A DNA stretch of 64,000 nucleotides from Candidatus Latescibacterota bacterium. GTDB lineage: Bacteria; Latescibacterota; UBA2968; UBA8231. The stretch covers positions 1,696,001-1,760,000 of the forward strand of contig OZ241867.1 in the NCBI GenBank assembly GCA_965203175.1. Reading direction: 5' to 3'. The notes beneath the pieces are model-generated. The model worked only from the letters and a program-made list of their open reading frames with translations. It had not been told where the DNA came from and ran no database searches. The position numbers and the translations under genes were made by a program. Below are positions 41,680 through 64,000 of this stretch, in pieces (within the stretch, counting starts at the first letter, position 1; each line of letters opens with the position of its first letter).

Positions 41680-41903
41680 GAGAAACCTCCAGAAGTCTCA
41701 GTGAATTTTTTGGACGGCGCAGCGACAACATATTGTTACCGGATATGAGACCACAATTATCCGACATTCTCACTCTCCCTGAACGGTATCACGATCACTT
41801 GTAGTGGCTGCCTTGCCATGCTAACTCTTCAGTATGCATGGAACGCCGTCCTTCCGGACGCTATTCCATGGTCCATGAACACTCGGATCGAAATAGGCTT
41901 CTC

Positions 41904-42422: not shown

Positions 42423-42562
42423 CCTCGCACTAGGATGGAATGATTTACACATATTATTGTTGCGATTAGCCATCTTCCACAAAATCGGAGGAGCGAGCCA
42501 GCGATTCGACTAGCTGAGCCAGCGTCAGTCCGTCTGGTCCATCCCATCGCTCGGTCTGATTT

Positions 42563-43102: not shown

Positions 43103-43111
43103 TTCACTTGT

Positions 43112-43540: not shown

Positions 43541-43557
43541 ATGCTTCTCACAAAAAT

Positions 43558-44001: not shown

Positions 44002-44050
44002 GGCTAGACCTCCCTCATAAAATTAAAAAAAGCTAGCTTGCAAAAATGAG

Positions 44051-44530: not shown

Positions 44531-44577
44531 CGCAAGCGTCCTCTAATTTGAGTTAGGTTCGCCGCCGTGTTGAGCAT

Positions 44578-45384: not shown

Positions 45385-45639
45385 CGCCAGCCAGCCTTTC
45401 GTTAGAATAGCGAATTGGGCACCATTAGAATCAAAGAGTTTGCGAGGACAATCGCAACCGAACCCGCGAGGTTGAATCATTCTACGTAACTCCTTGTAAT
45501 AAATTGAGATAGACCGATTTTTCTAAAATCTGACGCGCCTAGCGCCGCAGCGCAAATTTCGCGTCGCCTCAACAATACTTATTATGCTACGTCACAGGGA
45601 GATCCGTTCCTAGGATCCGGACTACGCACAGAATAAAAC

Positions 45640-47076: not shown

Positions 47077-47087
47077 AGGATAATTCA

Positions 47088-47996: not shown

Positions 47997-48039
47997 TCTG
48001 TGGTGGCCAGAATGCCCTAATAGAAGACAGGAGATTGCT

Positions 48040-49623
48040 ATGAGTAACGGATGGAATGACCTGCGCGGTTATTATCCTGGAGATTGGGTCAGGCCCAGGC
48101 AGAACGCGGGGCATTGGCGTCCATTGGTCGATTGGACGGAGGTTTTTCCGGGCCATCGCTCCGTCGACCGAGCGGGTGCATTCGAACTCTACGATGCTCC
48201 CATCGGCGTCCGCTTGGCGATCGAGGAGGCAGACAAATCGGCTCCGCTCGAGTTCGATGGCCAAGTGAATGATGACGGCGATGGTGTAGGCAATTCCGTG
48301 CGGGTGTGGCAGGCGGATGACCGATACCACCTGCTCTACTACCAGGGGAGACGCGTCGCTTATGCGGTAAGTGAAGACGCGTACCGCTGGACCCGTCCCG
48401 CCTTGGGCATCATCGAGAAGAACGGCTCGAAGGAGAACAACCTAGTCACCGATGTGGGGGGCGACCTGCTCAAAGCGGTATTCGAGGATCCAACCGCGCC
48501 ACCGGAAGAGCGGTTTAAGGGCATGGGTTGTGAGGGAGCTATGATCAATTCGGAGACCGGAGGGGTCGCCAACGAGGGCGAAGAGGTCGACGAGGAATAC
48601 ATACAAAAGTGGTGGGCCGATCAGGAATACTTGGGTCCAGCCTACAAAGGGCCTAAGCTGATTCTCAAGGGCCGGGTAATGGGATGGGTCTCCCCCGACC
48701 GCATTCACTGGAAGCGGACCGACAAGATTCTCGCCGATTTTCCCATGGATGGGGGCCTCTCCGCCAGATACGATGAGAAATCCGGTTACTACTACGCCTA
48801 CTGTCGCATCCAAGGCGTCCCCCAGGAACAGTTCGACCTGATCGGCAGCGGTGTTCCAGAGGATGGCATTTTCCACCGGGCGATCGGGCTGACCCGGACC
48901 AAGGACTTCAACCACTGGCCCGCTCCCAAGCTCCTCCTCTTTCCAGATGGTCAGGACGAGCCCGACCTCTCGTTCTACGGCGGCGATTACTTTCCCTATC
49001 CGAGTAGAGACGATCTGCACTGCATGTTGGTACAGGCCTACCATCACGCCACCGACCACGTGGACAGCCAGCTCGCCATCAGTCGCGACGGTTTGATTTG
49101 GCAGCGGCCGGAGCGCAAGCCGATTATTTCGGTAGGCGCTCCGGGTGCGCCCGACTCGGCCATGGTCTATTCCTGGGGCAGCGGCATCGCGGAATTGCCG
49201 GACGGCAATTGGGGGTCTCTCTACGGAGGGCACACATCGCTACACAACGCACCGCAGAGAGAAGAGGCGGTGTTGCAGTGGGCTCGGTGGCGGCCCCACA
49301 GATTCTGCGGCATTGAAGCGGATGTGGAGGGCCGGTTTACCTTGCCGACCGTAGTGAGAACCGCCAGTCAGCTGAAGCTCAACTACCGCTGTCGCCCGGG
49401 TGGCTGGATCAAGGTCGAGATTCTGCGCAACATTCCCTCGCGGATTCACCCCGACGTCGATCCGGTCGCCAGCCTGACCTTTGAAGAAAGCGATCTGCTG
49501 CAAGGAGATTCGCTCGACCAGACGGTCACCTGGAACGGCAACAGCGACTTGTCCGAGGTGGGTGAGATGTTGGCGATTCGGATTCGGATGTTTCAGGCAA
49601 AAATCTTCGCGTACCGCGTTTAA
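48040..49623 (+). CDS. hypothetical protein, probable glycoside hydrolase-like beta-propeller with a C-terminal beta-sandwich
   Basis: Asp-box-like S.DG..W repeats (SEDAYRW, SPDRIHW, TKDFNHW, SRDGLIW). Confidence 0.65.
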   Translation: MSNGWNDLRGYYPGDWVRPRQNAGHWRPLVDWTEVFPGHRSVDRAGAFELYDAPIGVRLAIEEADKSAPLEFDGQVNDDGDGVGNSVRVWQADDRYHLLYYQGRRVAYAVSEDAYRWTRPALGIIEKNGSKENNLVTDVGGDLLKAVFEDPTAPPEERFKGMGCEGAMINSETGGVANEGEEVDEEYIQKWWADQEYLGPAYKGPKLILKGRVMGWVSPDRIHWKRTDKILADFPMDGGLSARYDEKSGYYYAYCRIQGVPQEQFDLIGSGVPEDGIFHRAIGLTRTKDFNHWPAPKLLLFPDGQDEPDLSFYGGDYFPYPSRDDLHCMLVQAYHHATDHVDSQLAISRDGLIWQRPERKPIISVGAPGAPDSAMVYSWGSGIAELPDGNWGSLYGGHTSLHNAPQREEAVLQWARWRPHRFCGIEADVEGRFTLPTVVRTASQLKLNYRCRPGGWIKVEILRNIPSRIHPDVDPVASLTFEESDLLQGDSLDQTVTWNGNSDLSEVGEMLAIRIRMFQAKIFAYRV

Positions 49624-49635
49624 GAGGTTGATCGC

Positions 49636-51573
49636 GTGACAGGTAATCAGACGGGCGCGGTCCCTAAGTTGGTCGAAGTCAGGGCGACGCAGGTATCGCC
49701 GCCCCCCGGATGGGCGCTTCTGGAACGCCGGTTGATGAAGCTGATGGAGGACGCGGTCGAGCCCATGGTCGACAAGTACGCGGAAAAGGGCGGCGCATTC
49801 TACTACGCCGACGATGTTGACGACCTATACGAAAGGGTGTATAACTGGGGCCTGTTCTACGCCATGGGGGCCGATCGCAAGGTGCTCGACCTCGGGTTGC
49901 AGCAATGGCACGCAACCACTCGGTTCTTCGCCGACGATATTACCAGCCGCGTCCACCCCCGCTTCCAGCCCCAGATCCACAACGAGTACTACAACCAAGC
50001 CGCCGCCGGTGCCAACGAGTGGTACCACCAGGGCGAGGGCAACATGGCCTTCTACCATTTCGGCCTAGCCGATCCCACCATTTCGGAAAACGTGCGCCGC
50101 GCTAGGCGGTTTGCGGCCATGTTCATGGACGAGGATCCCGAAGCCCCCAACTACGATCCCCAGCACAGGATCTTCCGCAGCCCCATTCAGACCAGCGTCG
50201 GCCCCATGCACCACGCAACGGTGGACAACGTAATCATGTGGCTGCAGGGAGGAGAAACGGGTTACGAGAAGGGATACCGCCCCTACAGGGTGCGGGCCAC
50301 CCTCGATCCGGTAGTGACAGACCTCGAGGGGAACTGGTTCGAGGATCCCGCGCGCCGGGACGAGATTCTCAAGCTGTTCGACCACATCGTCCTTAACGGC
50401 GACGTCCCCCACAGTCTCGGCGCCACCGCCCTGATCACCAACGCCTTCCTCTACACCGGCGAGGACAAGTACAAGCAGTGGGTGCTCGACTACACCGAGG
50501 GCTGGATGGAGCGCATCGAGCGCAACGGCGGCATCCTGCCCGACAACGTCGGGCCGACCGGCGAGATCGGCGAAAACCGCAACGGCCTCTGGTGGGGCGG
50601 GCTCTACGGCTGGAACACCTTCGTCGGCCACTACATCATGTTCAGCGCCCTCACCATCGCCGCCGAATGCGCCCTCCTGCTCACCGGCGACTTCGGCTAT
50701 CTCGAACTGCTGCGCTCGCAGATCCGGCTGCTCATGGACAACGCCATCACCCGCGAGGACGGCCAGCTTCTGTTGCCGGCCCGCTACGGTGCGGACGGCT
50801 GGGAGTACGCGAGGGACGACTACGACTACGAAAAAGGCCGGTTCGTGCCCTACCGCATGCAGGAGTTGGCCCACCTCTATCACGCCTCAATGTCCCAAGA
50901 GGACTACGACCTCATCGTCCGCATTCGGGACACCGACAAAATGCGCGACTGGAACCACGCGCCCGTCCTCGGAGAGAAGAGCTACGCCGACACCGAGCTG
51001 GCCCGCTTCCAGTACTACGACGGCAAGAACCCGGACTGGCCCGAAAAAATCCTGCAGGCCGAGTATGAGAATGCCCAGGCTGATTTCCAGTCGATACTAA
51101 ACGAAACCCGGGACGCCAAGACCCTGATCGCCGACAACCCCTCTCCCCCCACTACGGTCTACACCAAGGGATTGACGCAGGTGACGATGGGGGCGCCGCA
51201 ATCGGTGTACACTGGAGGGCTATTGCGCGCCACCGTCCGCTACTTCGATGCAGACCGCACGCGACCGGGCCTACCACCCGATGTCGCCGCTCTCGTCGAC
51301 AAACTAGGAACTGACAGCGCAGGTCTTCAGCTCGTCAACCTAAACGCCAGCGAGACGCGCAACCTGATCGTGCAGGCCGGGGCTTTCGCCGAGCACGAAT
51401 TTGTCGAACTGGCGCATGAAGAGCAGACCATCCAAGTGGAGTCGAAGTACTTCGCAGTGCAACTCCCCCCCGGCACCTCCATCCGGCTGGACGTGGGCAT
51501 GCGCCGCTTTGCTCACCAGCCGACCTATGCCTTCCCTTGGCACGGGGATGCTATCCCGGTGCCGTACCAGTAG
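49636..51573 (+). CDS. conserved hypothetical protein (probable alpha/alpha toroid)
   Basis: Long ORF with strong GC3 bias, RBS GAGG, 12 bp after the previous gene; no function recognised. Confidence 0.75.
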   Translation: MTGNQTGAVPKLVEVRATQVSPPPGWALLERRLMKLMEDAVEPMVDKYAEKGGAFYYADDVDDLYERVYNWGLFYAMGADRKVLDLGLQQWHATTRFFADDITSRVHPRFQPQIHNEYYNQAAAGANEWYHQGEGNMAFYHFGLADPTISENVRRARRFAAMFMDEDPEAPNYDPQHRIFRSPIQTSVGPMHHATVDNVIMWLQGGETGYEKGYRPYRVRATLDPVVTDLEGNWFEDPARRDEILKLFDHIVLNGDVPHSLGATALITNAFLYTGEDKYKQWVLDYTEGWMERIERNGGILPDNVGPTGEIGENRNGLWWGGLYGWNTFVGHYIMFSALTIAAECALLLTGDFGYLELLRSQIRLLMDNAITREDGQLLLPARYGADGWEYARDDYDYEKGRFVPYRMQELAHLYHASMSQEDYDLIVRIRDTDKMRDWNHAPVLGEKSYADTELARFQYYDGKNPDWPEKILQAEYENAQADFQSILNETRDAKTLIADNPSPPTTVYTKGLTQVTMGAPQSVYTGGLLRATVRYFDADRTRPGLPPDVAALVDKLGTDSAGLQLVNLNASETRNLIVQAGAFAEHEFVELAHEEQTIQVESKYFAVQLPPGTSIRLDVGMRRFAHQPTYAFPWHGDAIPVPYQ

Positions 51574-51600
51574 CTCTCCACATAGCGTCAACCATCAACA

Positions 51601-52371
51601 TCAGGGCATCCAGATATTCCACTTGCCATACTTTTCCCAGATGCGACAGGCGTCACAGGTACACATCAACCGGAGTGCAAAACGCGGTTTGTTACTTGTA
51701 TTGAGAGATCCAGAGTGTATCAACAGATAATGAAAAAACAGTACATCTCCTCGGGAAGGCCTCAACTCAATCGGCTCTCCCAGACCGAACCTTTGTTGCG
51801 GCTTCTTAAAATCTGACAGCATTTGATACCGGTCAGAGTTCTGCACTGCCGCCTTGCTGAGCTTCCGATGCGATCCTGGCCAGACCGCAGTACCACCACC
51901 CTGCGCAACACCAGAATCGAGATAGGTCAGGGAAGAGACGCGGAATGACCCGGGAAAGACATTGAAAGGTCGATGTCCACCATCGACGTGCCCATTGCTA
52001 TAATCCCAGTCTTTCGAAACCGGAAATACACTGCGTGCCCAGACTCCCTCTGGTTGTGGCTTCTGACAGTGAAATGCACCTGCATTTTCCCGAGCCAGTT
52101 GGCTCTGTACTTCGTAAAATGCGGGAGTACAACAAGCCAACAACGCGGGATCTTGAACCCCAAAATGTTCAATCACCCCCTGGCTGACGATTGTGTTTAC
52201 CCCATCTGTTTCGTCTGGCAAAGGAGACCACGAAGCCGGATCATCCCGATCTACCCCGAGCACAGACCACATCGCAACTTCCGCATTGGCAATTGTCTCT
52301 TCTGGAATCAATCCCGACACCAGCACATACCCATCTCGGTCATATTGCGTCAGTTGCTCCTGTGAAAGCAT
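51601..52371 (-). CDS. PhyH-family Fe(II)/2OG dioxygenase
   Basis: HVD, PGSH, GDV..FH...HSG, R. Confidence 0.88.
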   Translation of the reverse strand: MLSQEQLTQYDRDGYVLVSGLIPEETIANAEVAMWSVLGVDRDDPASWSPLPDETDGVNTIVSQGVIEHFGVQDPALLACCTPAFYEVQSQLARENAGAFHCQKPQPEGVWARSVFPVSKDWDYSNGHVDGGHRPFNVFPGSFRVSSLTYLDSGVAQGGGTAVWPGSHRKLSKAAVQNSDRYQMLSDFKKPQQRFGLGEPIELRPSRGDVLFFHYLLIHSGSLNTSNKPRFALRLMCTCDACRIWEKYGKWNIWMP

Positions 52372-52395
52372 AGACTCCTCCTAGATAGATCGAAT

Positions 52396-52438
52396 TATGT
52401 ATAGAAAAAATAAGGCATCGATATCGGTACTATGCAGT
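52396..52438 (-). mobile_element. orphan IS91/ISCR oriIS-like end, copy A
   Basis: - strand ...GTACCGATATCGATGCCTTATTTTTTCTATACAT; nearly identical to 55389-55431. Confidence 0.65.
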
Positions 52439-52461
52439 CTTCAGCCCCCAGCCCCCACTTC

Positions 52462-53199
52462 TCAATGCTTACACGCCACATGTCGATCTTCGTAGATTCC
52501 CTTTGGAAACTTTTCTGGATTGAGTTCTTCAGGCATATAATGCCATGCCGTGCTATAGCGCGTGCGATTGCTGTGGTTATCATAAGCACCGTGCAGGAGA
52601 TTGGCGGAAAACAGGACAACCGTGCCAGCGGGAATGACCACATCCACAGCCTGCGATTCATCGACCTTTGTCCAACTGCCATGCCTGCTTGGATCCCTGC
52701 GGTGCTCGACAATCTCGCCCATCCGGTGGCTGCCGGGCACCACCCGCAAACACCCATTCTCCACATCTGAATCTTCCAGATAAATTCCACAACTGATAAT
52801 GCGATCCGTATCGGTGCCAAAATAAAAGTTGTCCTGATGCCAGCCCGTTGACGTGCCGCCATTGGGCAACTTGGGAAAAAACTTAGTGCCAAACACATCG
52901 ATATTTTCACCAATCAATACGGCCACGCGGTCTAAAATCGCCGGTTCACGCGCCAGTTCCAACACGCGGGCATCGACCACGCAAACCCCCTGCACTTTGT
53001 GCAACAAACCCGCCTGGGGTTCGCCGCGCTCGTCCAACTCAAGCGTCCAGTGCGGCACCTGCTCGGTCAACTTGCATCCTTCTGCGACCAGTTCATCAAA
53101 CACCTGCTTGTAATAGGCCAATCGCTCGCCTTGTATCAGGGCTGCAAAAACGAGATAGCCCTGTTCTCGGAACTGTCGCACCTGTTCGTCTGTCAACAT
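52462..53199 (-). CDS. PhyH-family Fe(II)/2OG dioxygenase
   Basis: WHQD, NGCL.VVPGSH, LLHG...N....R. Confidence 0.92.
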   Translation of the reverse strand: MLTDEQVRQFREQGYLVFAALIQGERLAYYKQVFDELVAEGCKLTEQVPHWTLELDERGEPQAGLLHKVQGVCVVDARVLELAREPAILDRVAVLIGENIDVFGTKFFPKLPNGGTSTGWHQDNFYFGTDTDRIISCGIYLEDSDVENGCLRVVPGSHRMGEIVEHRRDPSRHGSWTKVDESQAVDVVIPAGTVVLFSANLLHGAYDNHSNRTRYSTAWHYMPEELNPEKFPKGIYEDRHVACKH

Positions 53200-53299
53200 A
53201 AAAACCTCCTCGACTTCGCGGCCTGAACCAACTCTCGCTCTAGCAATTTGTAATAGGCTGCAGAATCAGTCGTCGCCTTTTTCTTTAACAGAGCCTGCG

Positions 53300-53333
53300 A
53301 TGTATAAGAAAAATAAAGACACCGGCTCGGTGC
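53300..53333 (-). mobile_element. orphan oriIS-like end, copy D (diverged)
   Basis: - strand GGCACCGAGCCGGTGTCTTTATTTTTCTTATACAT: same terminal motif and a subterminal hairpin at the same offset. Confidence 0.5.
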
Positions 53334-53408
53334 CACCACCTCTTACCGGTGACCCGCTTGGCTACTGGCGGTTGGGGAGCGGCGCGCCTCAGGACGCCGC
53401 TCCGAATT

Positions 53409-55160
53409 CTACCTAGCCAGCGAGGGTGGTGACACGCCTTTCCCCCCTTTCAACACCAGGAAATTCCTGGCCTCATCCACAGCGGGCTTCCCGGCGGGGT
53501 CCACCTTCATGGGCCCTCCGTTCCCGCCGTTGGCATCCTTGTCCCAGATTCTGTCATCATACCCATCGGGAGCATACTGACAGATGTAGGCTTTGCGCAC
53601 GCTATCGGTGTTGTTGGCCCCTGTAAAGTGCGGCGTCAGGCTCCAGAAGATCGCCGCCGAGCCCGCCTTGACCGGCACACAGACGGCATCGTCGGATCTA
53701 AGGCCGCTGATCGTCCAGCCACCGTTGCTCTCATCGAACTCGTGAAGCAGCGGCCCTCGCCGGAAGAGCCTCGGCACGAACCACGGGCAGCCGTTTTCCT
53801 CGGTTGCATCGTTGAGCGCTACCCAGCACGACAGGTATTGCAGGGGGTCAATGAACGCAAGGCCAATGTCCTGATGGCAGGGGAAAACCCGCCCAGGGCA
53901 GGGCTTCGTGTACACCGCCTGCTCCCGGTACAACCGCACATCGTCGCAGTTGAGCAGGTCGTGGCAAACCTTCTGGAAGAACGGGCCGGCGCAGAATGAG
54001 CGGGCAAGCGCCGACCCCCGGGCCAGGCCGCTCGTAATGGTGATCCGATCAGCATTCGCAATCGTGCGCGACGGCTGCTGCCGCCCCCTGGCTTCGAGGT
54101 GCCGCACACTCTCGTGCTCGAGCCGATCGAATTCATCCCGCAGCTGCCCGATCTCCGCAGCGCTGAAGGCATCCTCGACCACAGTGAACCCCTGGAGATC
54201 CATATCGTCCGCCTGATCCCTGGTGAGGATCCGGAGAGGAGCATCCTTGCGTGTCGGCAGGAGCGACGGGTGCTTGCTCGCGCTGCTGAACTCCATGGCC
54301 GGATGCCGCGGCAGTCGCGCGTTGTGCTGAGCAGCCGGCGTCGGCTCGTCGCCCGTGGACCAGCGTGCGGTTCCGTCGAAGCCGAGGCGCTCCCACAACA
54401 CGTGCGGCCACTCCCTGAAGCCGCTTGAGATGTAGTGGCATGCGTAGACCTGGCGAAAGACGGTCGGGTCGCGCCCCATCAACCCCCGGTGCCACAAATG
54501 GCCGTCGAAGATCACGGCTGTTCCCCTTTTTGCCACGATGTGCACCTCCTCCGCCCCTGCCGCTTCGTTCTCCTCGAAAATCTCCTTCCTCAGCCTAGCA
54601 CCTAGCTCCGGGTCGCCTGAGTGCGTGCGATAGCCCGCCCACTTTCCCTGCCGGAGGTCATCGTGGTGAAGCTTGCGGCGAAGGTGGCCGCCTGTCTGCA
54701 GCGCGAGCGTGCCGATCTCCTCGTCCACGTCCACGAGCGGAATCCACACACCGATGCAGCCCGGAAGCGGGGTTCCGTCACAATGCCAGCTCTGCGACCA
54801 CTGGCTGCCCTTCCACCAGTAGTGGCTCTTGATGCCCTCGGGCTCTTCCCCGCCCAAGGCATCCTTGAGCGGTCCGCGCAGCTTCGGATGCAGCATGAAA
54901 GCGCGGCAGACGGGGTCGTGGATGTGGCACTGATCCGTGTCGATGAGATGGTCGGCGCTTTCCGCCGGCGGGACGATTCCCTCGACGGGGATTTCGCCCG
55001 CGTGCACGGCGTCCATATGCCGGATGAGCCCGTCGCACTCGTCGGCGGTGAAGAGCGAAGGCACGGCGACCCACCCGTCGCGAGCGTACTTCCGCCTCTG
55101 CTCGGTGGTGAGGCCCGCCACCTCCACGTGGCTGGGTTGGGTGTGTTCGGAGCCGGACAT
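53409..55160 (-). CDS. tandem two-domain PhyH-family dioxygenase
   Basis: Domain 1 WHCD...WHRG; domain 2 HQD...NGC...PH. Start placed at ATG 55160 because the upstream in-frame stretch overlaps a PQQ-enzyme remnant. Confidence 0.82.
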   Translation of the reverse strand: MSGSEHTQPSHVEVAGLTTEQRRKYARDGWVAVPSLFTADECDGLIRHMDAVHAGEIPVEGIVPPAESADHLIDTDQCHIHDPVCRAFMLHPKLRGPLKDALGGEEPEGIKSHYWWKGSQWSQSWHCDGTPLPGCIGVWIPLVDVDEEIGTLALQTGGHLRRKLHHDDLRQGKWAGYRTHSGDPELGARLRKEIFEENEAAGAEEVHIVAKRGTAVIFDGHLWHRGLMGRDPTVFRQVYACHYISSGFREWPHVLWERLGFDGTARWSTGDEPTPAAQHNARLPRHPAMEFSSASKHPSLLPTRKDAPLRILTRDQADDMDLQGFTVVEDAFSAAEIGQLRDEFDRLEHESVRHLEARGRQQPSRTIANADRITITSGLARGSALARSFCAGPFFQKVCHDLLNCDDVRLYREQAVYTKPCPGRVFPCHQDIGLAFIDPLQYLSCWVALNDATEENGCPWFVPRLFRRGPLLHEFDESNGGWTISGLRSDDAVCVPVKAGSAAIFWSLTPHFTGANNTDSVRKAYICQYAPDGYDDRIWDKDANGGNGGPMKVDPAGKPAVDEARNFLVLKGGKGVSPPSLAR

Positions 55161-55174
55161 TTCAGTGGGAATCG

Positions 55175-55332
55175 CTACTTCGGTCGCGCGAAGGCGACGA
55201 GCGCGGCGTCCGATCCGGTGCCCGTAGCGATGACGACGAACTGCCGCCCCGACCGCGCGCGGTAGGTCATGGTTCTTGGGCACCCGCGAGGGCGGTAGAT
55301 AAGAGGGCGGCTGTCGCAACTAATCGCTTCAT
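55175..55332 (-). pseudogene. internally deleted PQQ-dependent dehydrogenase-like gene
   Basis: Signal peptide MKRLVATAALLSTALAGAQE is joined out of frame to MTYRARSGRQFVVIATGTGSDAALVAFARPK*, matching the PMTY..GRQ[YF]VVI...LVAF.LP C-terminus of quinoprotein dehydrogenases. Confidence 0.72.
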
Positions 55333-55388
55333 GAAGAGGACAACTGAATCATAGTTTCGCGGCGTATTCTAGATATCATGGATTGACC

Positions 55389-55580
55389 TATGTATAGAAA
55401 AAATAAAGGCATCGATATGGTTCTATGCAATTCGCTGAAAACGCTACAATTCACCGAGAACGTTCGCAAGAGTCCGGCAGAGTCCCTGATGACTCGCCTG
55501 TCGTCGCATCGAATTGTTCGGGAATTACACACCGGTGTAAATATGATGCGGCTATTCCCTCGGTCAACCAAGAATGTTGA
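55389..55580 (-). mobile_element. orphan IS91/ISCR 3'-end (oriIS-like), copy B, about 190 bp
   Basis: Aligns with 58072-58244 (TTCGCTGAAAACGC, CCCTGATGA, TGTCGTCGCA.CGAAT.GTTCG, TGTAAA-N20-GGTCAACC) and with copy A at the terminus. Confidence 0.72.
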
Positions 55581-55664
55581 TTTTGAGTTTGGTGATCAGC
55601 TAGAGATGAAAGTGCACGCTCAATTTGAACTCGAAAAACTAGCCTGTTGAGCTTTTGCCCCAAA

Positions 55665-56456
55665 TCAATTGATTGGAGTACTCTCAAGCGTCTCCAGCCA
55701 GCGATAGCCGTAGGCCGGCACTTCGGGTGACCCGGTCATGCCGTCGGGAAACATGCCAAACCGCTCGACGCGCAGGCGGTAACCGTAGTCGTGCCAAGGC
55801 TGGAAGCCCACGATCTCGCCGCGGAAGGGGGCGCCGTTGACGACCTTGCAGTACCCGGGATAGCCGTCGTCGCACTCGACCCTGTGGGCATCCACGGTAA
55901 TCTCCTCTTCCGTGCCCGCGGCCTTGGTTCTCGAGACGACTTCGCTCAACACGTATCGACCATCGCCATACCTGTTGGCTTCGAGGATGTAGTGGTGGCC
56001 GGCCTCGTATTCGAAGCTAGTGATCATGTCGTCGTACGGTGCGCCGTCCACCACCAGGCAGAAGTCGTCACTCTGGGCGCATATCACCCGCGCCGGACCC
56101 ACCGACAAGGTTGCGGGGATGGATGGTGCTGGGGTCTTCTCCAGTTGCTCCAGCAGGCGGTAGGCGTACCGGCCGGCGTCCTGCGGCGGCTCCTCCCCAC
56201 CCCAGGGATCGTACTTGCCGATCCGCAGGCGATAGTCGTAGCCGGGCTCGTATTCGAATCCTTCGATTCCATCGTAGAAGAACTCGCCGTCGACCACCAT
56301 GCACGACTGCAAGCCCACGCCGTAGCACTTGGCTAGGGTGGGGCCGACGGTCACCTCCCGTATCTCGAGGTATCCGGCGTCCGGTCCTGTGGAACGGTCA
56401 CAGCCGGCAAAGACCAAGGTCAGCAGGAAGAAGACAGTAGAACTTCTGGTGCGCAT
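55665..56456 (-). CDS. lipoprotein with three DUF4377-like domains
   Basis: Lipobox FAGC; three V.P....C......C..V.G...I.GF.Y..G..Y.L units. Confidence 0.78.
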   Translation of the reverse strand: MRTRSSTVFFLLTLVFAGCDRSTGPDAGYLEIREVTVGPTLAKCYGVGLQSCMVVDGEFFYDGIEGFEYEPGYDYRLRIGKYDPWGGEEPPQDAGRYAYRLLEQLEKTPAPSIPATLSVGPARVICAQSDDFCLVVDGAPYDDMITSFEYEAGHHYILEANRYGDGRYVLSEVVSRTKAAGTEEEITVDAHRVECDDGYPGYCKVVNGAPFRGEIVGFQPWHDYGYRLRVERFGMFPDGMTGSPEVPAYGYRWLETLESTPIN

Positions 56457-56544
56457 TGGAGTCCTCCCTCGGTACGACTACCGCCACCTTTGCGTCCCGC
56501 ATTGGATCGCAACAGGCTCTGACGGCTCTACTCCAGAATCTAAG

Positions 56545-56680
56545 TACACGACAGTAGAGCGGTATGGGATGCTTCGCTCCGCTCAGCATGACAGGGCCTC
56601 ATGTTGTCATGTTGAGCGGAGCGAAGCGGAGTCGAAACATCTTATTCCTCGATGCCCATGCGTAACGTTACTGTCGTGTA
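56545..56680. repeat. palindromic REP/MITE-like element, copy 2, enclosed by a 12-bp perfect inverted repeat
   Basis: Core 56558-56649 is the inverted homologue of 20360-20456; flanked by TACACGACAGTA (56545-56556) and TACTGTCGTGTA (56669-56680). Confidence 0.78.
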
Positions 56681-56704
56681 TTAAGCTCTAGAATATACCG
56701 AAAG

Positions 56705-58039
56705 CTATAGCCCCTGCATCGCTGATTCGGGATCGAGAATTACATCAGCAGCAATCAATCGATCCTGTAGCTCGGCCATCGGTACGCTACGACTATCCAC
56801 ACCTGTTGCCCTTGCTAGCGCCGCGGCCGTGCCAGCAGCCTGCCCCATGCCCATCGAATTAGCTGTGACTCGACTTGATGCCAGGGCCTCTGAAGTTGCC
56901 GAGTGACAACGACCCGCAACCCAGAGATTCTCCACGCCCTGCGGCAGCAACGTTCTGTACGAAATATCGTACGGCGGTACGATCGGCTGATCGTGATACC
57001 CGGCTGCGTCCTTGGGATGCCGGTCTATCCTCCACGCCCCAAGCACTACCACGTCATCCTGTCGTTTCGCCGTTCTTATATCGTCGCCGGTCAGCGTGTA
57101 ATCGCCGACGATTCTTCTGGATTCTCGCGCTCCAGCCGTCGGACCACTGGTGAAAAAGTATGCGTCTTTGAACTCGGGTAGTGCTTCTTTCCAGAGCTCA
57201 AACATGGTCCACGCATCGCGTCGGCCCTGGATTTCTGCGTTCGTCCAGTCTTGCGGATTCGTTGCGTTTCCGGGTGTGCGAATCACATTGAAATAGATGT
57301 CTCGACCGGAAAAAGTTGCCGGCCACGGGCCACCATAAAGGCCGATCTTTCCTGCGGCACGTGCCTTCTCCAGAACGGCCGCACATTTGCGACGCAGCTC
57401 AAATGTAAGTTCGACAAAGCCAATTCGGAAATGCAGGCTCATCGGCTGCAGCGATTCGGCGACCTCGTATGGACATCCTGCCCAGGCGGCGACATCGGCA
57501 TCACCCGTGGCATCGATAACGCACTTGGGTCGTATGGCGGTGAGGCCGTCTTTGTTGCTGACTACGACACTGTCCACCCGGTTTCCCTTGACGATCACGT
57601 CAGACACCTGGGTGTGGAAAAGCAGATTCACGCCAGACTCGATTAAAATCTCATCCGCAGCCTTCTTGAACAACTCCGGATCAGTGCGCGGAATCACGCG
57701 ATCAGGATGCTTTTCGACCTCGGTGAAATCGCCGTTCACGTTGTATGAGAGATGTGGAGCCTGCCCGGGCTCAACCACACCCATTCGTTCGAGCATCTCA
57801 AAGACAAGTCCACCCACAACAGGCTTACCCGTCTCTTCGTAGACGAATCCATCGAACGCCGAGCCGATGATGTTCGTAAAGAACCCACCGGCAAATCCCA
57901 TGCGGTCGACAGCCATCACAGAAGCCCCGTTCCGCGCCGCGCTAACAGCCGCGCCAATACCCGCCAGCCCCGTTCCGCAAACGAGAACATCGGGTTCAGC
58001 GACTACGGGAAGTGATTTTGTGTACTGGATTATTGACAT
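56705..58039 (-). CDS. FAD-dependent oxidoreductase (FAD_oxidored family)
   Basis: DVLVCG.G.AG..AA, IDATGDADVA, RESRRIVG.Y.L, NL.VAGRC.S. Confidence 0.9.
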   Translation of the reverse strand: MSIIQYTKSLPVVAEPDVLVCGTGLAGIGAAVSAARNGASVMAVDRMGFAGGFFTNIIGSAFDGFVYEETGKPVVGGLVFEMLERMGVVEPGQAPHLSYNVNGDFTEVEKHPDRVIPRTDPELFKKAADEILIESGVNLLFHTQVSDVIVKGNRVDSVVVSNKDGLTAIRPKCVIDATGDADVAAWAGCPYEVAESLQPMSLHFRIGFVELTFELRRKCAAVLEKARAAGKIGLYGGPWPATFSGRDIYFNVIRTPGNATNPQDWTNAEIQGRRDAWTMFELWKEALPEFKDAYFFTSGPTAGARESRRIVGDYTLTGDDIRTAKRQDDVVVLGAWRIDRHPKDAAGYHDQPIVPPYDISYRTLLPQGVENLWVAGRCHSATSEALASSRVTANSMGMGQAAGTAAALARATGVDSRSVPMAELQDRLIAADVILDPESAMQGL

Positions 58040-58071
58040 GGTTTGATTCTTTCTTAATCCAATTTTTTATA

Positions 58072-58772
58072 AGATAGGAAAAGTAAGGTGCCGATATCAG
58101 TACTAATCAGTTCGCTGAAAACGCACGCAAGGGGCCAGCAGGGCCCCTGATGAATCGATTGTCGTCGCACCGAATCGTTCGCGAATACTCAGAGTACTGT
58201 TGTAAAGAATTTCGGCGCGGTTCAGGGGTCAACCTAGTACTTGAGGGCACACTCCTCCGTACGGCTCACGGCGCAGGGAGCGAATCGCGGAGGAGGTCAG
58301 GCGACGAACTCGAACTGCGGCTGCGGGGGTGTCTTGGGTGGGCACCGCCGGCCGGCCTCCCCCCTCCAAATACCCTGGATCGAGGTAGGATCGGTCAGGG
58401 CGGCCACGATCCGCAGGGGCCGGGTAGCCGTTGAGCTCGGCGGCAAACACCCAGGCGATGGCCGCAGGGCGGAGCGCTTGAATCGCGGTCCACCGCCGTC
58501 GACTCTTCGACCGGCTTGGCGGGCACGATGCGGCCGCGATCCCGGGCACGGAGGGGCCAGGACCCTGTGGTAGCGCAGGAGATGAAACCGGGGCGGGGGA
58601 CCAGAGTTGCCAGCTTCTCCAGTAGGTCCATCGGAGAGAGTAGAAGATAGCTCGTGCCATTCGACCAAGGCGTTTTGAGCGCGAAGGAAAGCCGCTGCGA
58701 ATCGAGGATGCGCAGACGCCTCGCCGCCAGGGCCGGCCGGGCCACGTAGCGGAATAAGCGTTCGAGCCCCGC
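58072..58772 (-). mobile_element. IS91/ISCR-like rolling-circle element remnant: frameshifted transposase C-terminus (about 58297-58772) plus 3' region ending in oriIS-like copy C
   Basis: LERLFRYVARPALA..RL...LSFALKTPWSNGTS.LLLSPMDLLEKLA.LVP/PPRFHLLRYH.VLAP.../LRIVAALTDP is typical of IS91/ISCR Y2 transposases. About 220 bp past the stop the - strand reads CCTTACTTTTCCTATC. Confidence 0.82.
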
Positions 58773-58957
58773 TCGTGGCCATCGTCAAGGAACGACTCCA
58801 TCTCGATCTATCTTTGCATGCGATGCTACAAATTCTCAGCGTCACGCCTTTCGAAACAGTACCGCTGATTCAACTATTTACCGTACCCCGCCGCCTCAGG
58901 AAATCCCTGATGCCCATAACCAACTGTTTTTGCTATGAAACGTGTCGGACACTACTG
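58772..58957 (+). mobile_element. IS4-family transposase C-terminal fragment with right terminus
   Basis: LVAIVKERLHLDLSLHAMLQILSVTPFE..P..QLF and terminal GTCGGACACTACTG. Confidence 0.72.
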
Positions 58958-59136
58958 ACAACACATGAAGATTGTCGAGTTCGACGCTAGACTCGCATGG
59001 GGTGCGGCCTAACTACCGTAGCATCACTTCTGGGATGGCACAGTAACCCACCGGCCCGAACGACTTCGCACGCCCTACGAAATCATCGTCGGGGATCGGT
59101 GATATGTATACGGTGGCCCTAGTGCGTTGTAGCAAA

Positions 59137-62100
59137 CTATCCCACCAGCTCAAAAGTTTCATATCTCACTCTTTCGCCTTCAAACTCCTTCACTTGCCTA
59201 GACATATAACGCCCTACCGTCTTTTCTATTCTTGATACTTCCTCTCCGCCCAGAACCGAGATTTCCGAATCCTTGTTCCCAAGAGAATTGTAACTCGTTC
59301 CCAAACGAAGCCCCACTCCTTTTGACAAGATCCAGCGATCGTGAAAGGGCGCAACACCATTCCTTTCAGTGCCTACAACCAGGATTTCTGTTTCCGGAGG
59401 GGCATGCTCGCAAAGTTTTCGCCAAGCGGTGGTGTATGCACTAGGCAGGTCGCTGTTAGTGTTGGGTCCGAGTTGGTGTGCCTTGCTTGTGACAATTTGT
59501 ACGTGAAGATCCGGGTCTGCCTCTATTACTTGAACCACAAAATCCAAGTCATTTACCCCAAAGTAAGGATCGACAATGGTGATACTGTCCACGGCGTTTT
59601 TGTCGAGCCAATCCTGGAGGTATTGTTTCGCCTTGTCCCGTTCACCAAACTGAATGATGACTATATTGTCTGCGTCGCCTCGGTCCTGCCACTCGGGATT
59701 CGAACCCAATCGGCCATGTCTTTCGGTTATGGAAAAGAAAAACTCCGCGCCCCGCAACACACCTTCAAATAGATCTCTAATATATGTCTTCGATTCACTA
59801 GTATAAGAATATTTTATGAGCGCATTAGACAGTATCCACGAATAGATCGGGTACGATGTTTTCAACGGATAGTTGCTAGCGCACACGAGCATTTCACGCA
59901 GCCGAACCATGTCAGTGGCTATCATGCGACCAGAATTGAGTGCACCGAGAGCTCGCCACGCTGCCAATGCTAGGCCCGGGTCGTCTTGCAGCGTTTCCAA
60001 ATCAAGATGACTACGCGAGTCTCCCAGGTCCTTTCTTAACTTATGTCCATCTAATTGTAACCTCGCGCGTTCCCTGTATTCGTCGCGCGCGGGATCGTCG
60101 TCATATAGCATAGCCAACTTCATTGGTAGTTCGGGATCGAGGCGGTAAGCTAGGTCTATGATCTGGTTTTCTCTAAAGGCAGTTCGCCGGGAACCTGTAT
60201 TGATTATTAGACCGAACGCCTTTTTCAAAGCGCGCGAAGCAAGCTCTCGGTCCCAAGCAATCGTTAGATCGGTGATAAGAAAGAGATGACTGTAGCGGTC
60301 TTCGATAGTCGGTAAACTGTCGGTTGTTAAGTCCACATCTTTCAACAATCGCTTGGCGTGGCGGTGCTGTTTCGATGGGAGGCTAACGGCCAGTTCGGCC
60401 AGTACAAAAATTCGATCGGCCATATTACTGATTGACTCGCCCTCCGCTATGAGTTTGGCCCACGTTACGTCGGGAGATGCTGAAATTCGCAACGCCTCTG
60501 CTTTGCAGAGAATTTGGTATCCCGCATGTTGTATCCGGTTTGGGAGAGGCAATCGCCGTTCGGCAATTTCGAGCATCCGCCGGGTAATGTCTGCTTTCTG
60601 GTCCCGAGTCAGATGAATCGATGTTCGAGGTGCTGTGACGGCTGACGCGATGCTGTGGAAAATCCTATAAATTGTAAAGTCTTCGTCGGTTTCGTCACAC
60701 AATTGTAGTAAATTCTGAATATCAGAAAAGGTGAGACGTGAGGCGGTTGAATTTGTGTCGTCAAAGGGTTCTCCAGGCGGTTGTTTTCGTAACAGGGCGA
60801 AGCTGAGGGCTGACGTGCAATCCGCTTGCACGGATGCGGGGAATGCGGAAATCCCACTTCGGGCCCGATCTCTGTCGTCAAGCCACACCGCGGGATAGGC
60901 ATACCGCCATGCCTGATATGCGGTCGCGCAATCCTTCCCGGAGAGATTAGCAAGTGCCGGCCACACGTGTTCGTTCACTACGTCGGAGAATGCGCGAGAT
61001 TCTCCTGCGCGCCAGAGATAAAACGCTAGGCTGGACAATAAAGTGACCCGCTCTTGTAAATCTGGTACTCTAACAGCCATGCGGCAAACCCTGTCTATGT
61101 CGGTGGCCACAAGGAGTTTAGATTCCGCTAGTGCGTAGGCTGCTTTCATCAAGAGATCCACGACGTAAATGATACCCTGTTCGACATCCTCGCTTCCAGA
61201 AACCAATCTGCTTTCTGTGGCCAAAGAGTCAAACACGGTTTTTGCCAAGTCGGGGCGTTTCTGTCGTAGTGTGGGCACCAGTTGACAGGCTGTTCGGTAT
61301 TTGGCTCGAGGGCTGGCGATGGAATCAAACGCGGCTAGGAGGCTGTCATCCACAGAGGTACGAAAAACGTCGTTATCCTGTGAACTACCAAGTGTAACCG
61401 CGATTTCGGCAAGACACTTCGTTTTGATTACTGCGGAAGAACATGCCGCTAAACGAGGGAAAACGCAGTTTAGATCGATCGACGGGCGAGTGCCGGCGTC
61501 TACATCAAGACAGAAGCGCTTTACGGTGTCCCAGATCGCGGCGTCGAACTGCTCGCAGGGGCCCATTTCATTGAGTGCGGCAAACAATACGGCGCTATTG
61601 AGAGTAATTGTGGTGGCCTTGCACATTGAAGCCACTATTTCGCGAAATGCGCTAGTTCGACGGTCTATGGTGTTAAGGCGACGAGAAACGTCGAGCGCGG
61701 CTTCCGGTTTAGAACTTGCTAGTGCCGTAATGGTATCCTTAAGTATCTCGAACTGTTCCGCACTAGCTGCGAGTATTTCGGTAAGTGTTTGGGCGAACTC
61801 AGTGTCCACCATAGCGCCGACGTCGGACAATTGGTCCAACTTTCGCGAAGGGTCGAACTTGTGTAGCTCGGCGATGAACCATGCGAGGCAAGTGATTCTA
61901 GTCTCCAATTCGTCAAGGGAGTCAATTGGGTCTAAATATAGTTCTTCGAGACGGTCTACTGTTCGGGCGAGATCGCCATCTGCGTAATTGCATCCCGCCA
62001 AGCGGAGCTGTAGTCGGACATAATCGACGATTGGGCCCTTGTTTCGTATAACCTCCTTTTGCCCGTCAAGCATGGCGACGATGCGCCGACATCTGTCTCG

Positions 62101-63993
62101 ATCGACTGCGTACGGAAGGGGTGCAGAAAGTTCGCGATAGACCGCGGCGGTCGGGGTGAATTGCGGGGTAGCGATGGCGTCGTGGATGCCTACTTCAACC
62201 ACATCGAGTGCATCACTTCGTAACGGATGTCGCGCAACCCACTTTCTCAGGATGAACAACCTTTCACTAGAATCGCTAATGGAGTGGGTTACGTCTAGGA
62301 CGTCGGCGGCTGACTTCGGATGGAAGAAAATCTCGCTGGCGTCCAACAGGCGGCGAAGTTTCTCGTCGACCATGAGGTCTTTCGGAACGGGCGGTAAGGG
62401 ACTTTCGCTACCGCGTGTCTCGTGGGTGTTTTTGGTCCTGAGTGCAGCTACGGTGACTCTCGCCAAGGCAAGTTCAAATGAACCATCGTCCACTTGGGAA
62501 TGCGTGACCGTTTTTAGAAGGTTCAACGCGAGCTCGGCGTCGATCGGATAGAGATCGGTGGCGATATCTATCCCTTCTTCTGTGGGCAAAGACCCAAGAT
62601 CGAGACTTTGGTAGATCTGTCGGATCTCTTCCAATATTGGTGTCGCGTCAAAACCGGGGCTGTTGGAAAGTGCGTCAACGGTAACTGCTAATAGGCGCAT
62701 ACGTTGTGTGAGTAGCGGTACATCGTTGGCGACCGCGAGAGCTCCGTCGACATCGCCGACTGCGCTGCGCGCTCGGATCTCGTGCTCTATACCGGTTGTC
62801 TGTGAAGCCTGTTGAATTATTGACCTAGATAGTGAGTAGGTGGTGAGTGCGCGGTCTCGTCGCGCTTGGTGGCATATATTTATGGCGCTGCGCAGCGTTG
62901 GTTCTATTCCGGCTGCAGTTCGTGTCTTGAGTAGTATGGTGGCCAGTCGGCGCTCATGTAGCCAATCCACTAGTGCGTCCGTTTTTCCCGCACGTTCTAA
63001 ATACGTTGGGAGTTGAGTCAGTGATTCGGGTGAATCTGGCTTCTGGAGTAACATTTCGGCGATGGCTTCGGTGGCCTCGGATACGAGTGCTCCGAGGTTC
63101 CGGTCGGCAAAACTTCGGAAAGCGTCCGACGAAAACTCCCAACCCTTCGCCTTCTCTGAGTAGAGAAGAAATGGTAGCGAACTAAACGCGTTGTCGATAT
63201 TCGTTTTGGTTGTTCCACAATGAGCCGCGAGAGTCTGTGAATCTACAGGAGAGCCGTAAGCCACAATAAATCCCAAGGCTCGATGGATCTCCATAGGTGA
63301 CTGGGAGATGACAGTCCATTCGGTTTCGAAGAGAGACTCAATGTCTGTGGGGAATTCATTCAGAATCTCAGAGACGTCTTCTGGATTGGAAGCAAGGCGA
63401 CGCCTCACACTTGCGAGGATGGCCGGTACCCCGCCAAATACCGGGTGAATTTCAGCTCGCAACTTGTCATCTGTTACTAAGTCCTTAAAATACTCGTTGG
63501 TCTCATGCGGGCTAAACGGCGGTAACGGATATGATTTCGCTCGTAGCGTTCGCTTGGTAGCGCCGCTAAGTACGTCGCTCATTTCCCCACTGAATAGGAA
63601 CCTGAATGGTTTGATTCCGAGTGGTAGAAGGTTCAATAATGCTTGGCGGATTGAGTCGTCGGCAGATGGAATATGGTGAAAACCGTCAACAATGATGTAC
63701 CCCGGGTTACGGGCACGGTCCAGTACACGGGCACATTTACCCCACAAATTACGAAGATCTCCGTCGGTTGGGTCGCGGTTGTCGGGTAGCCGCCTGTCGG
63801 TTAAGTACCAGTGAACTTGGTCTGCCAAGTCATGGCGCGCAAAAACTGGGTCGTAGGCTAATCTGCTAGGCGCTTTGAGGAATAGTCCAAAACACGGTTC
63901 GTCGACACTATCGGCAAACTCTAACAAAAGAGTGGTCGTTCCCCAATTCGATGGTGCTTCGACGCATACAACGTCGGTATTCGAGACAAACAT
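59137..63993 (-). CDS. very large (at least 1618 aa) STAND/NLR-like NTPase with helical repeats and a C-terminal PLD-like domain; candidate anti-phage protein (N-terminus may extend past the window)
   Basis: Walker A-like VEAPSNWGTTTLL, Walker B IIVDG, GVPAIL, long helical solenoid, C-terminal IVDPYF...FHDRWILSK..GLRLGTSYNSLG. Confidence 0.72.
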   Translation of the reverse strand: MFVSNTDVVCVEAPSNWGTTTLLLEFADSVDEPCFGLFLKAPSRLAYDPVFARHDLADQVHWYLTDRRLPDNRDPTDGDLRNLWGKCARVLDRARNPGYIIVDGFHHIPSADDSIRQALLNLLPLGIKPFRFLFSGEMSDVLSGATKRTLRAKSYPLPPFSPHETNEYFKDLVTDDKLRAEIHPVFGGVPAILASVRRRLASNPEDVSEILNEFPTDIESLFETEWTVISQSPMEIHRALGFIVAYGSPVDSQTLAAHCGTTKTNIDNAFSSLPFLLYSEKAKGWEFSSDAFRSFADRNLGALVSEATEAIAEMLLQKPDSPESLTQLPTYLERAGKTDALVDWLHERRLATILLKTRTAAGIEPTLRSAINICHQARRDRALTTYSLSRSIIQQASQTTGIEHEIRARSAVGDVDGALAVANDVPLLTQRMRLLAVTVDALSNSPGFDATPILEEIRQIYQSLDLGSLPTEEGIDIATDLYPIDAELALNLLKTVTHSQVDDGSFELALARVTVAALRTKNTHETRGSESPLPPVPKDLMVDEKLRRLLDASEIFFHPKSAADVLDVTHSISDSSERLFILRKWVARHPLRSDALDVVEVGIHDAIATPQFTPTAAVYRELSAPLPYAVDRDRCRRIVAMLDGQKEVIRNKGPIVDYVRLQLRLAGCNYADGDLARTVDRLEELYLDPIDSLDELETRITCLAWFIAELHKFDPSRKLDQLSDVGAMVDTEFAQTLTEILAASAEQFEILKDTITALASSKPEAALDVSRRLNTIDRRTSAFREIVASMCKATTITLNSAVLFAALNEMGPCEQFDAAIWDTVKRFCLDVDAGTRPSIDLNCVFPRLAACSSAVIKTKCLAEIAVTLGSSQDNDVFRTSVDDSLLAAFDSIASPRAKYRTACQLVPTLRQKRPDLAKTVFDSLATESRLVSGSEDVEQGIIYVVDLLMKAAYALAESKLLVATDIDRVCRMAVRVPDLQERVTLLSSLAFYLWRAGESRAFSDVVNEHVWPALANLSGKDCATAYQAWRYAYPAVWLDDRDRARSGISAFPASVQADCTSALSFALLRKQPPGEPFDDTNSTASRLTFSDIQNLLQLCDETDEDFTIYRIFHSIASAVTAPRTSIHLTRDQKADITRRMLEIAERRLPLPNRIQHAGYQILCKAEALRISASPDVTWAKLIAEGESISNMADRIFVLAELAVSLPSKQHRHAKRLLKDVDLTTDSLPTIEDRYSHLFLITDLTIAWDRELASRALKKAFGLIINTGSRRTAFRENQIIDLAYRLDPELPMKLAMLYDDDPARDEYRERARLQLDGHKLRKDLGDSRSHLDLETLQDDPGLALAAWRALGALNSGRMIATDMVRLREMLVCASNYPLKTSYPIYSWILSNALIKYSYTSESKTYIRDLFEGVLRGAEFFFSITERHGRLGSNPEWQDRGDADNIVIIQFGERDKAKQYLQDWLDKNAVDSITIVDPYFGVNDLDFVVQVIEADPDLHVQIVTSKAHQLGPNTNSDLPSAYTTAWRKLCEHAPPETEILVVGTERNGVAPFHDRWILSKGVGLRLGTSYNSLGNKDSEISVLGGEEVSRIEKTVGRYMSRQVKEFEGERVRYETFELVG

Positions 63994-64000
63994 GTGGGCT

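Follow-up and report, generated by a model that had tools for sequence, protein, structure and literature searches.

Serial, co-oriented IS91-family ends at a hypervariable katG-adjoining locus of a Candidatus Latescibacterota bacterium

A 64,000-nt stretch of DNA from a Candidatus Latescibacterota bacterium (contig OZ241867.1, positions 1,696,001 to 1,760,000; hereafter the window) closes within a gene array adjoining katG, in which one short motif recurs on the minus strand ahead of successive, mostly metabolic genes. By comparison with intact relatives, we identify this motif as the oriIS-side (outer, 3') terminus of an IS91-family rolling-circle insertion sequence (IS), and five co-oriented ends, A to E, survive between katG and a conserved flank. 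Among related genomes, the boundaries of variable gene modules often coincide with these ends. We somewhat favour a history in which the array grew in the direction set by its ori ends, through one-ended transposition with transposase supplied in trans, by the addition of units that each consist of cargo followed by an end.

The repeated motif matches the oriIS-side terminus of IS91-family elements

Read along the minus strand, the locus runs from katG (itself on the opposite strand) through end E, 730 nt of DNA, a 1618-amino-acid (aa) open reading frame (ORF), a further 360 nt and a truncated transposase gene (tnp) to end C. C is followed by a FAD oxidoreductase gene (FAD-ox), a miniature inverted-repeat transposable element (MITE) and a DUF4377 gene up to end B, B by the remnant of a pyrroloquinoline quinone (PQQ) dehydrogenase gene and a double PhyH gene up to end D, and D by PhyH-2, end A, PhyH-1 and a convergent flank gene. 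All long ORFs (7/7) run the same way as the ends. The next co-oriented start lies 27 nt after A, 32 nt after C, 62–72 nt after B, 101 nt after D and 733 nt after E, so that A to D do stand just 5' of co-oriented genes, as a preliminary description of the window had put it.

That description had reported the four minus-strand ends A to D, all of which were recovered; the positions it gave for A, D and B were off by 2–3 nt and that for C was exact. Exact minus-strand matches to the 15-mer TTATTTTTTCTATAC lie at 52413→52399 (A) and 55406→55392 (B); the match at 53316→53302 (D) has two mismatches and that at 58086→58072 (C) has four. The window holds three matches at ≤2 mismatches, compared with none across 100 shuffles. 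Across the 6.58-Mb genome (59% GC) there are two exact matches, four at ≤1 mismatch and 17 at ≤2, and 4 of these 17 fall inside 12.4 kb on the same strand. Flanking homology is common to the copies at this locus only, and is lacking from the other near-matches. The fifth copy, E, is found 726 nt past the end of the window, on the minus strand at genome positions 1760726–1760890 (window-equivalent 64726–64890), between katG and the 1618-aa ORF.

The extent of IS homology, as measured by profile search, differs from end to end: 191 nt or more at C, where it runs on into the transposase, about 156–165 nt at E, and about 40–49 nt at A. B shares about 166–180 nt with C, close to the 170–190 bp estimated earlier. 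D retains only about 19 nt and was missed by the profile search. Its counterpart in a relative, G001, shares the left flank (GGTGGTGGCACCGAGTCGG) and retains after it an end of 290 nt that includes the transposase stop; compared with that copy, D has undergone a 330-nt internal deletion that left only CTTTATTTTTCTTATACAT, and the two share their left flank and diverge on the right from the tip, TATACAT, onward. We count D as a genuine member of the end set, and identify it by this alignment as the same copy as the 290-nt end of G001. In this genus the shared terminal sequence extends two bases further than elsewhere, to ...TATACAT; at least 15 copies show this, and G101 has five of the same subtype.

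The sole PF04986 (Y2_Tnp) match in the genome lies at 58569–58778 on the minus strand (E 2e-10). Read through two frameshifts, this transposase remnant finishes ...PQPQFEFVA* with its stop at 58300, and the tip of C lies 226 nt past that natural stop, which bears out the proposal that C is the natural 3' end of a decayed transposase gene. A tblastn search with an intact 480-aa relative aligned the remnant to residues 306–480, the last 175 codons, at 79% identity over 306–414, and found nothing else in the genome. Nor did searches of 31 genomes of the genus, by family, C-terminal piece and full protein, yield more than fragments: 64 in 15 genomes, none longer than about 160 aa and most from the C-terminal half. 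Four candidates for an intact copy (L025, L023, L024 and L030) proved to be remnants only. Class-wide, 36 of 132 genomes match the transposase family, with up to 38 matches per genome, and such matches are plentiful in the sister genera that belong to the same family. An intact Y2 transposase, for which the preliminary description had proposed to look, was found in those sister genera, likewise labelled Candidatus Latescibacterota (L064, L066 and L069), and in neither this genome nor the 31 of the genus.

These three full elements measure 1.78–1.8 kb and carry an open 480-aa transposase ending ...PQPQFEFAA*, which resembles the window remnant. Their left end (terIS) holds a small palindrome (...GTGAGGAAATCTTCAC...), and their 3' region of about 230 nt leads to a point, after ...GGTGCCTCATTTT(T/A)CCTATAC, at which the flanks of all copies diverge. 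Because intact relatives end exactly at ...CCTATAC, we assign the motif to the oriIS-side terminus. The conservation of the terminal word reaches further: of 18 diverse IS91-family loci taken from named records of proteobacterial, bdellovibrionote, actinobacterial and acidobacterial origin, 13 have C[CT]TAT[AC]C at 202–337 nt beyond the transposase match, as in the copies from Comamonas, Pseudomonas and Brevundimonas, which read GGGCGTTTGAACTTCCTATAC; this consensus replaces the terminal sequence given in the preliminary description, whose assignment of the ends to IS91-type oriIS the same data uphold. The transposase is about 41% identical to these named proteobacterial copies, and by its sequence we place the element in the IS91 family as a new and distant member.

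The familiar attributes of that family are unevenly preserved. The oriIS lies 3' of the transposase, there are no terminal inverted repeats and the terminal sequence is conserved; the Y2 HUH transposase is present as a remnant only, and the terIS with its subterminal palindrome, present in intact relatives, is missing from the window copies. No terIS or ter-like sequence was found in the window array, and B and E were on that ground rejected as complete mini-elements with both ter and ori ends. Because all copies lack terIS and the genome lacks a working transposase, we regard the array as a fossil, movable only by transposase from elsewhere.

The only ter-like stretch in the genome (2185959–2186111) belongs to a different locus. 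At genome 2185808–2186335 there is a deletion derivative of about 380 nt of a second IS91 subtype, comprising a ter end, the start of the transposase gene and an ori end; an older ori remnant, oriented alike, precedes this derivative by about 45 nt.

The preliminary description had also noted a small subterminal palindrome. Palindromes like ACCGATATCGGT can be seen in E, A and C, which lends the claim weak support. Folding adds none: hairpins predicted in the last 55 nt of six ends have energies no better than shuffles, D excepted, and the strong hairpin and terminator-like call at D sit in the upstream cargo flank, outside the IS end.

Gene content among relatives often changes at the ends

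We compared ten syntenic loci, with this genome designated G000, along with contigs from four public runs. An end-C DNA query recovered end fragments in 16 of 24 other sampled genomes of the genus, frequently clustered on one strand, and the katG-adjoining locus proved hypervariable. Across eight genomes and run X3, what comes after the katG-side end E is of five kinds: the 1618-aa unit in G000, FAD-ox in G010, G021, G020 and X3, PhyH-2 in G023, the PQQ gene in G002 and another gene in G001. A constant ori boundary with differing genes, as in the common regions of ISCR elements, is thus seen at the katG–E boundary and again at the D copy (G000 vs G001); a functional transposase within the common region was found in neither G000 nor the 31 genus genomes.

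The simplest arrangement is that of G010, in which the conserved flank is followed by PhyH-1, A and PhyH-2, then by FAD-ox, a single end and katG. In G021 and G020, DUF4377 is added, and 53319–55662 is replaced by 26 nt and then a D-like tip. G003 resembles this genome up to FAD-ox; the place of the 1618-aa unit is then taken by a stub of 54 nt together with 2 kb of different DNA. In G013, the A stub at the A–PhyH-1 junction gives way to a C-like end of 175 nt plus 2 kb of additional DNA. G001 has three ends, different cargo and a swapped order of FAD-ox and PhyH-2. In G023, katG and its end lead directly to PhyH-2 (TATAC followed by CTTGAGGAGG...), and G001 has a short stub at its PhyH-2 junction that matches G023, with the tip 17 nt before the ATG in G023 and 17–18 nt across the two. 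In G002, katG is followed by an end whose tip is deleted and then by the PQQ gene.

The clearest difference between forms concerns the 1618-aa ORF. X1 contigs are identical to the window across this ORF, and an X3 contig passes from 58059 to 64726 with 9 intervening nt, which is the katG–E–FAD-ox form also found in G010, G021 and G020. The extra 6.7 kb here (58069–64725) is made up of 730 nt, the 1618-aa ORF, the truncated transposase gene and C, with an ori tip at either border. A second X3 contig joins 51575 to 52446 and so lacks A and PhyH-1 (51576–52445).

Tallied by hand, the differences among loci fall into about 13 breakpoint classes. Three of them coincide with ori tips, namely those of E, of C and of the G023/G001 PhyH-2 junction; four coincide with truncated inner edges, namely those of A, D, E and the 54-nt stub. 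Ends cover just about 5% of the 13-kb stretch. Module boundaries in relatives coincide with them in about 7 of the 13 classes, which agrees with what the preliminary description had anticipated.

Two observations concern the wider distribution of the locus. G040, a member of another family, carries katG, PhyH-1 with an A-type end and two further ends at 80–88% nucleotide identity, and the region is present there twice (L017 and L022, on contigs C3 and C4), which suggests lateral transfer of the katG–PhyH-1 region. At positions 30000–50000 of the window and in L002, the surroundings are mosaic even within the genus, the flanks of the locus being about 400 kb apart in G023.

Longer co-oriented arrays in sister genera

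In four loci of sister genera (L155–L158), all ends (13/13) are co-oriented within their own locus. Every end keeps its tip, the transposase is cut at differing 5' points or internally, and just one copy is complete with a ter end. Homologies between copies all begin exactly at the tip, and cargo is never repeated. In L158, a stub lies 78 nt after a full copy. G101 contains two longer arrays, one with 14/14 ends on the minus strand over 58 kb and one with 14/14 on the plus strand over 73 kb, and the TATACAT subtype of this window occurs in one of the two. Their transposase fragments are likewise co-oriented (12/12 and 11/11), and about three quarters of the long ORFs run with the ends (32/43 and 41/53, from crude ORF calls). 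Along the chromosome of G102, cluster orientation flips at least seven times, and therefore a simple replichore bias fails to explain the co-orientation.

As a separate observation, the array cargo of G097 and G098 (L165 vs L155) is 99–100% identical while the adjoining IS copies are 90–94% identical, and a 245-nt indel lies directly at an ori tip; whole or partial arrays seem to have been exchanged recently between these species.

How the array may have grown

In the account that we somewhat favour, ends without terIS would be obligate one-ended substrates. Transposase supplied in trans would start at the ori tip and copy inward into the DNA upstream, giving a unit of cargo, in some cases truncated tnp, and ori end. 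Such units would be joined at or near the tip of a resident end, either through the action of the transposase or through an exchange involving a pair of ori ends, with RecA recombination between repeats assisting, and new units would stack in a single orientation, pushing older ones downstream. Later deletions would have trimmed the inner side of each end, with the last 19–50 nt retained because they lie 17–101 nt before the next gene start and are candidate transcription signals. Each end would therefore trail its own cargo and merely abut the next gene, rather than carrying the gene that it heads.

The 6.7-kb unit between E and C fits a cargo–end unit exactly, and is placed at the tip of E. 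Copies clustered near resident tips, namely the mini-element at 2.186 Mb in this genome and the stub in L158, are also in line with this account. Its polarity reverses that of the preliminary description, which had viewed the locus as a gene-capture train with each ori end plus the gene it heads as the mobile unit. The excerpted texts of PMC13181058 and PMC5737581 state that IS91-type transposition in which terIS is missed or absent carries DNA beyond terIS. Because one-ended IS91 transfer takes DNA upstream of the ori end (PMC13181058, in excerpt), the units read better as cargo followed by ori, and the 6.7-kb indel has that form. The link between ends and module turnover is what remains of the train; its polarity as proposed, and present activity, find no such support.

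Several observations weigh against our account. No transposition step was observed, and the run contigs are unable to show circles or transcript starts; some of the relatives' assemblies are fragmented. About 6 of the 13 breakpoint classes lie away from IS ends, for example 53208|56703, 55662 and the double-PhyH insertion. CTTG stands directly after the tip at one junction type only, that with PhyH-2 in G023 and G001 (TATAC|CTTG); elsewhere the tip is followed by AT in this genus and by TT or TC in sister genera, and not by CTTG/GTTC. When E, C and G010-type ends were tested for chimerism, the differing sites were lineage-specific and favoured neither insertion nor homologous recombination. 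One IS copy in G102 is a chimera, 99% identical to two neighbours, and therefore homologous recombination among copies does occur; deletions of the E × C type need nothing more. The joint absence of A and PhyH-1 in X3 is better fitted by a unit of end plus downstream gene. Lastly, a scan for sigma-70 consensus sequences and terminators called nothing at A, B, C or E, and no sigma-70-like promoter at any end. The end-to-start spacing of 17–101 nt would be compatible with outward promoters, and RNA-library contigs from run X15 overlap PhyH-1, PhyH-2 and FAD-ox and show neither start nor strand.

A less probable, though still serious, alternative is that the ends are IS debris, the remains of separate full insertions, and that the transposase moved no cargo at all. 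The repeats would then act as portable homology for RecA-mediated deletions, for the re-integration of circles and for exchange with incoming DNA, and gene-proximal stubs would be kept by selection. The G102 chimera speaks for this, as do the missing transposase and the many breakpoints unconnected with ends. A deletion between E and C, which are direct repeats, would give the G010-type form, and an E × B event that of G002, while the C-like variant at the A–PhyH-1 junction of G013 suggests conversion between ends. What debris leaves unexplained is the co-orientation of 13/13 and 28/28 ends in sister arrays despite at least seven flips in G102, the constant tip alongside a lost 5' side, and the arrival of unique foreign blocks, such as the 1618-aa unit, fused to truncated tnp; PhyH-2, moreover, is joined to an ori end in two independent ways, at 17 nt and at 101 nt ahead of its start. 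RecA recombination between repeats may nevertheless explain part of the pattern.

We put forward a further idea only tentatively, and with slightly less confidence than we accord to debris: the ori ends might be the recombination sites of a transposase-driven cassette system that moves circles of cargo plus one end and builds co-oriented arrays of tens of kilobases. A Y2 HUH enzyme acting in trans would exchange strands between two ori tips, so that these circles would be excised and re-inserted at resident ends. If true, this would also account for the variable genes on the ori side of ISCR common regions.

The model of the preliminary description taken literally, in which a non-autonomous ori end moves outward by one-ended transposition together with the gene it heads so that end-plus-gene units become stacked, seems to us improbable. 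It draws on the conservation of end-to-downstream-gene junctions while the upstream side varies, the ori–FAD-ox junction having three left partners and the ori–PhyH-1 and D–PhyH-2 junctions two each, and on the X3 contig that lacks A and PhyH-1 as a single block. A co-oriented ORF start lies within 120 nt in 6 of 11 unique junctions compared with 16% of random positions, a hint only, given crude ORF calls and few junctions; and in ISCR1, according to excerpts of PMC6218425, variable co-oriented genes likewise lie on the oriIS side. Set against these points, the experimental one-ended transposition of IS91 and IS1294 takes DNA beyond terIS and not beyond oriIS (PMC13181058 and PMC5737581, both in excerpt), homology between array copies always ends at the tip with no cargo duplicated alongside, and the 6.7-kb indel has tips at both borders with its end on the 3' side of the cargo. 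FAD-ox and other downstream genes, furthermore, occur both with and without an end (G013, G001 and G002).

That the motif is instead a host promoter, terminator or regulatory box, or a chance AT-rich match, is suggested by its T-rich character, by a TATAC(A)T box 17–101 nt before gene starts and by the terminator-like hairpin before D, and can be dismissed: the motif with its common context is confined to this locus and so is no common promoter, it continues into about 190 nt of IS 3' region and on to a transposase remnant, it occupies the position at which intact elements end (and they end nowhere else), the same terminal word recurs at 13 of 18 distant loci, shuffles gave no matches, and a search of Rfam over 51000–64000 returned none.

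Genes and features of the locus

Coordinates of the features within the window are collected in Table 1. GC content changes in steps between modules: about 51–54% in PhyH-1 and PhyH-2, 62–67% in the double-PhyH and DUF4377 genes, 56% in FAD-ox, 68% in the transposase remnant and 51% in the 1618-aa ORF. The 1618-aa block has a DNA homolog in none (0/75) of the other genomes of the family, with homology stopping at the transposase break, 58770–58775. The cargo looks acquired, judging from these GC steps, which span 50 to 68%, and from the block without homologs. The 1618-aa ORF gave a weak Pfam match to AAA_16 and a sub-threshold VPA1262-like stretch in NCBIfam, and nothing in PADLOC. No integrase domain was detected in nine ORFs scanned, and there is no attC. 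The runs containing this stretch are marine and sponge metagenomes.

Table 1. Features of the array within the window.
Feature	Position	Strand	Description
PhyH-1, phytanoyl-CoA dioxygenase family	51601..52371	-	PF05721, E 8e-10
End A	52396..52447	-	About 49-nt stub of the oriIS-side terminus (...GCCTTATTTTTTCTATACAT), 27 nt before PhyH-1 start
PhyH-2, 2-oxoglutarate (2OG)/Fe(II) dioxygenase, PhyH family	52462..53199	-	E 1.6e-32
End D	53299..53318	-	19-nt terminal stub CTTTATTTTTCTTATACAT
Fused double-PhyH gene	53409..55160	-	62–67% GC; inserted relative to G001 and G002
PQQ-dependent dehydrogenase remnant	55174..55332	-	DNA homology to G001 gene
End B	55389..55600	-	About 180–210 nt of IS 3' untranslated region plus terminus
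DUF4377 lipoprotein-like gene	55665..56456	-	64% GC
MITE-like insertion, 143 nt	56543..56685		Inverted repeats; outside the IS91 system
FAD-dependent oxidoreductase	56705..58039	-	PF12831, E 2.9e-98
End C	58069..58299	-	Whole 3' untranslated region plus terminus (...CACCTTACTTTTCCTATCT)
Y2 HUH transposase remnant	58300..58775	-	Frameshifted, 5'-truncated, residues 306–480 of 480
1618-aa ORF	59137..63993	-	51% GC; cargo of the newest unit

Some of these features have histories of their own. The PQQ gene of G001 (PF01011, E 2.6e-159) is nearly full length and frameshifted, and its remnant in the window has suffered an internal loss of about 1.8 kb that spared a signal peptide of 21 codons, a stop and about 30 final codons. 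The double-PhyH insertion (53367–55173) lies between the stop of the PQQ dehydrogenase and its 3' flank, with AGTAG at both joints. The MITE-like element has nested inverted repeats with 23-nt arms that are 96% complementary; it is missing at the matching site in G021, G003 and G020, and elsewhere in the genome there are at least seven longer copies (75–84% identity) and many partial ones.

Comparison with known systems

The origin of the differing genes on the oriIS side of IS91 and ISCR elements is still argued, and nearly all work on the question concerns resistance plasmids. The present locus is a natural, non-clinical series in which one end has five right-hand partners across related genomes, and together the 6.7-kb two-tip unit, the sister arrays of 14 ends and the intact transposases make the question approachable by comparative genomics and a two-end assay. 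The locus also shows that, in this uncultivated sponge- and marine-associated lineage, much of the turnover of accessory genes is organised around a single IS family. A literature search joining Latescibacter* and IS91 gave no paper with both terms among the 12 top-ranked matches listed, supplementary files being outside its scope, and searches on IS91, ISCR and oriIS gave only papers cited here.

According to the excerpted text of PMC13181058, the oriIS of IS91-type elements lies at the 3' side of the transposase gene, starts transposition, has subterminal palindromes and abuts the target tetranucleotide. The element described here is like IS91, IS801 and IS1294 in its Y2 HUH transposase (PF04986) and two unlike ends, and like the family in the size of its intact sister-genus copies (1.8 kb), in an ori end about 170–340 nt after the gene that finishes ...CCTATAC, and in a constant ori tip with variable 5' extent, as expected if the process starts at oriIS. 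It differs in that its transposase is only about 41% identical and a CTTG/GTTC target is not evident. The window copies differ further, having neither terIS nor a working gene, and elements and stubs lie in long co-oriented arrays.

Excerpts of PMC6218425 and PMC13393415 describe variable co-oriented genes on the oriIS side of ISCR1 and outward promoters in its 232-bp ori region, and this common region, a part of complex class 1 integrons, is like ours in presenting a ter-less single end with different co-oriented genes after oriIS. Here, in contrast, most ends lack an adjoining transposase, several stand in series, the cargo is metabolic or of unknown function instead of resistance genes, and there is no integron.

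The excerpted text of PMC5737581 reports a sphingomonad IS91-like element with a 17-bp oriIS 167 bp after the gene, and proposes one-ended capture of the 2OG-dioxygenase genes sdpA and rdpA, for which a circular form was seen. The IS91/ISCR8-type elements at these sphingomonad and Delftia dioxygenase clusters share with our array a conserved oriIS and 2OG-dioxygenase cargo. As there described, they are intact, plasmid-borne and few, whereas those of the window are fossil, chromosomal, arrayed and in another phylum.

Integron arrays are similar in that co-oriented genes are separated by a short, repeated, site-like sequence and strain-variable content extends from a fixed boundary. They differ in having an integrase with attI and attC sites; here the nine ORFs scanned hold no integrase domain, attC is absent, the repeat is a transposon end and the units are multi-gene and irregular in size. 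The behaviour of the array is closest to that of ISCR common regions and to the capture of genes for catabolic dioxygenases by IS91/ISCR8; it is set apart by its serial solo ends without transposase, its long co-oriented arrays, its Latescibacterota host lineage and its marine and sponge setting.

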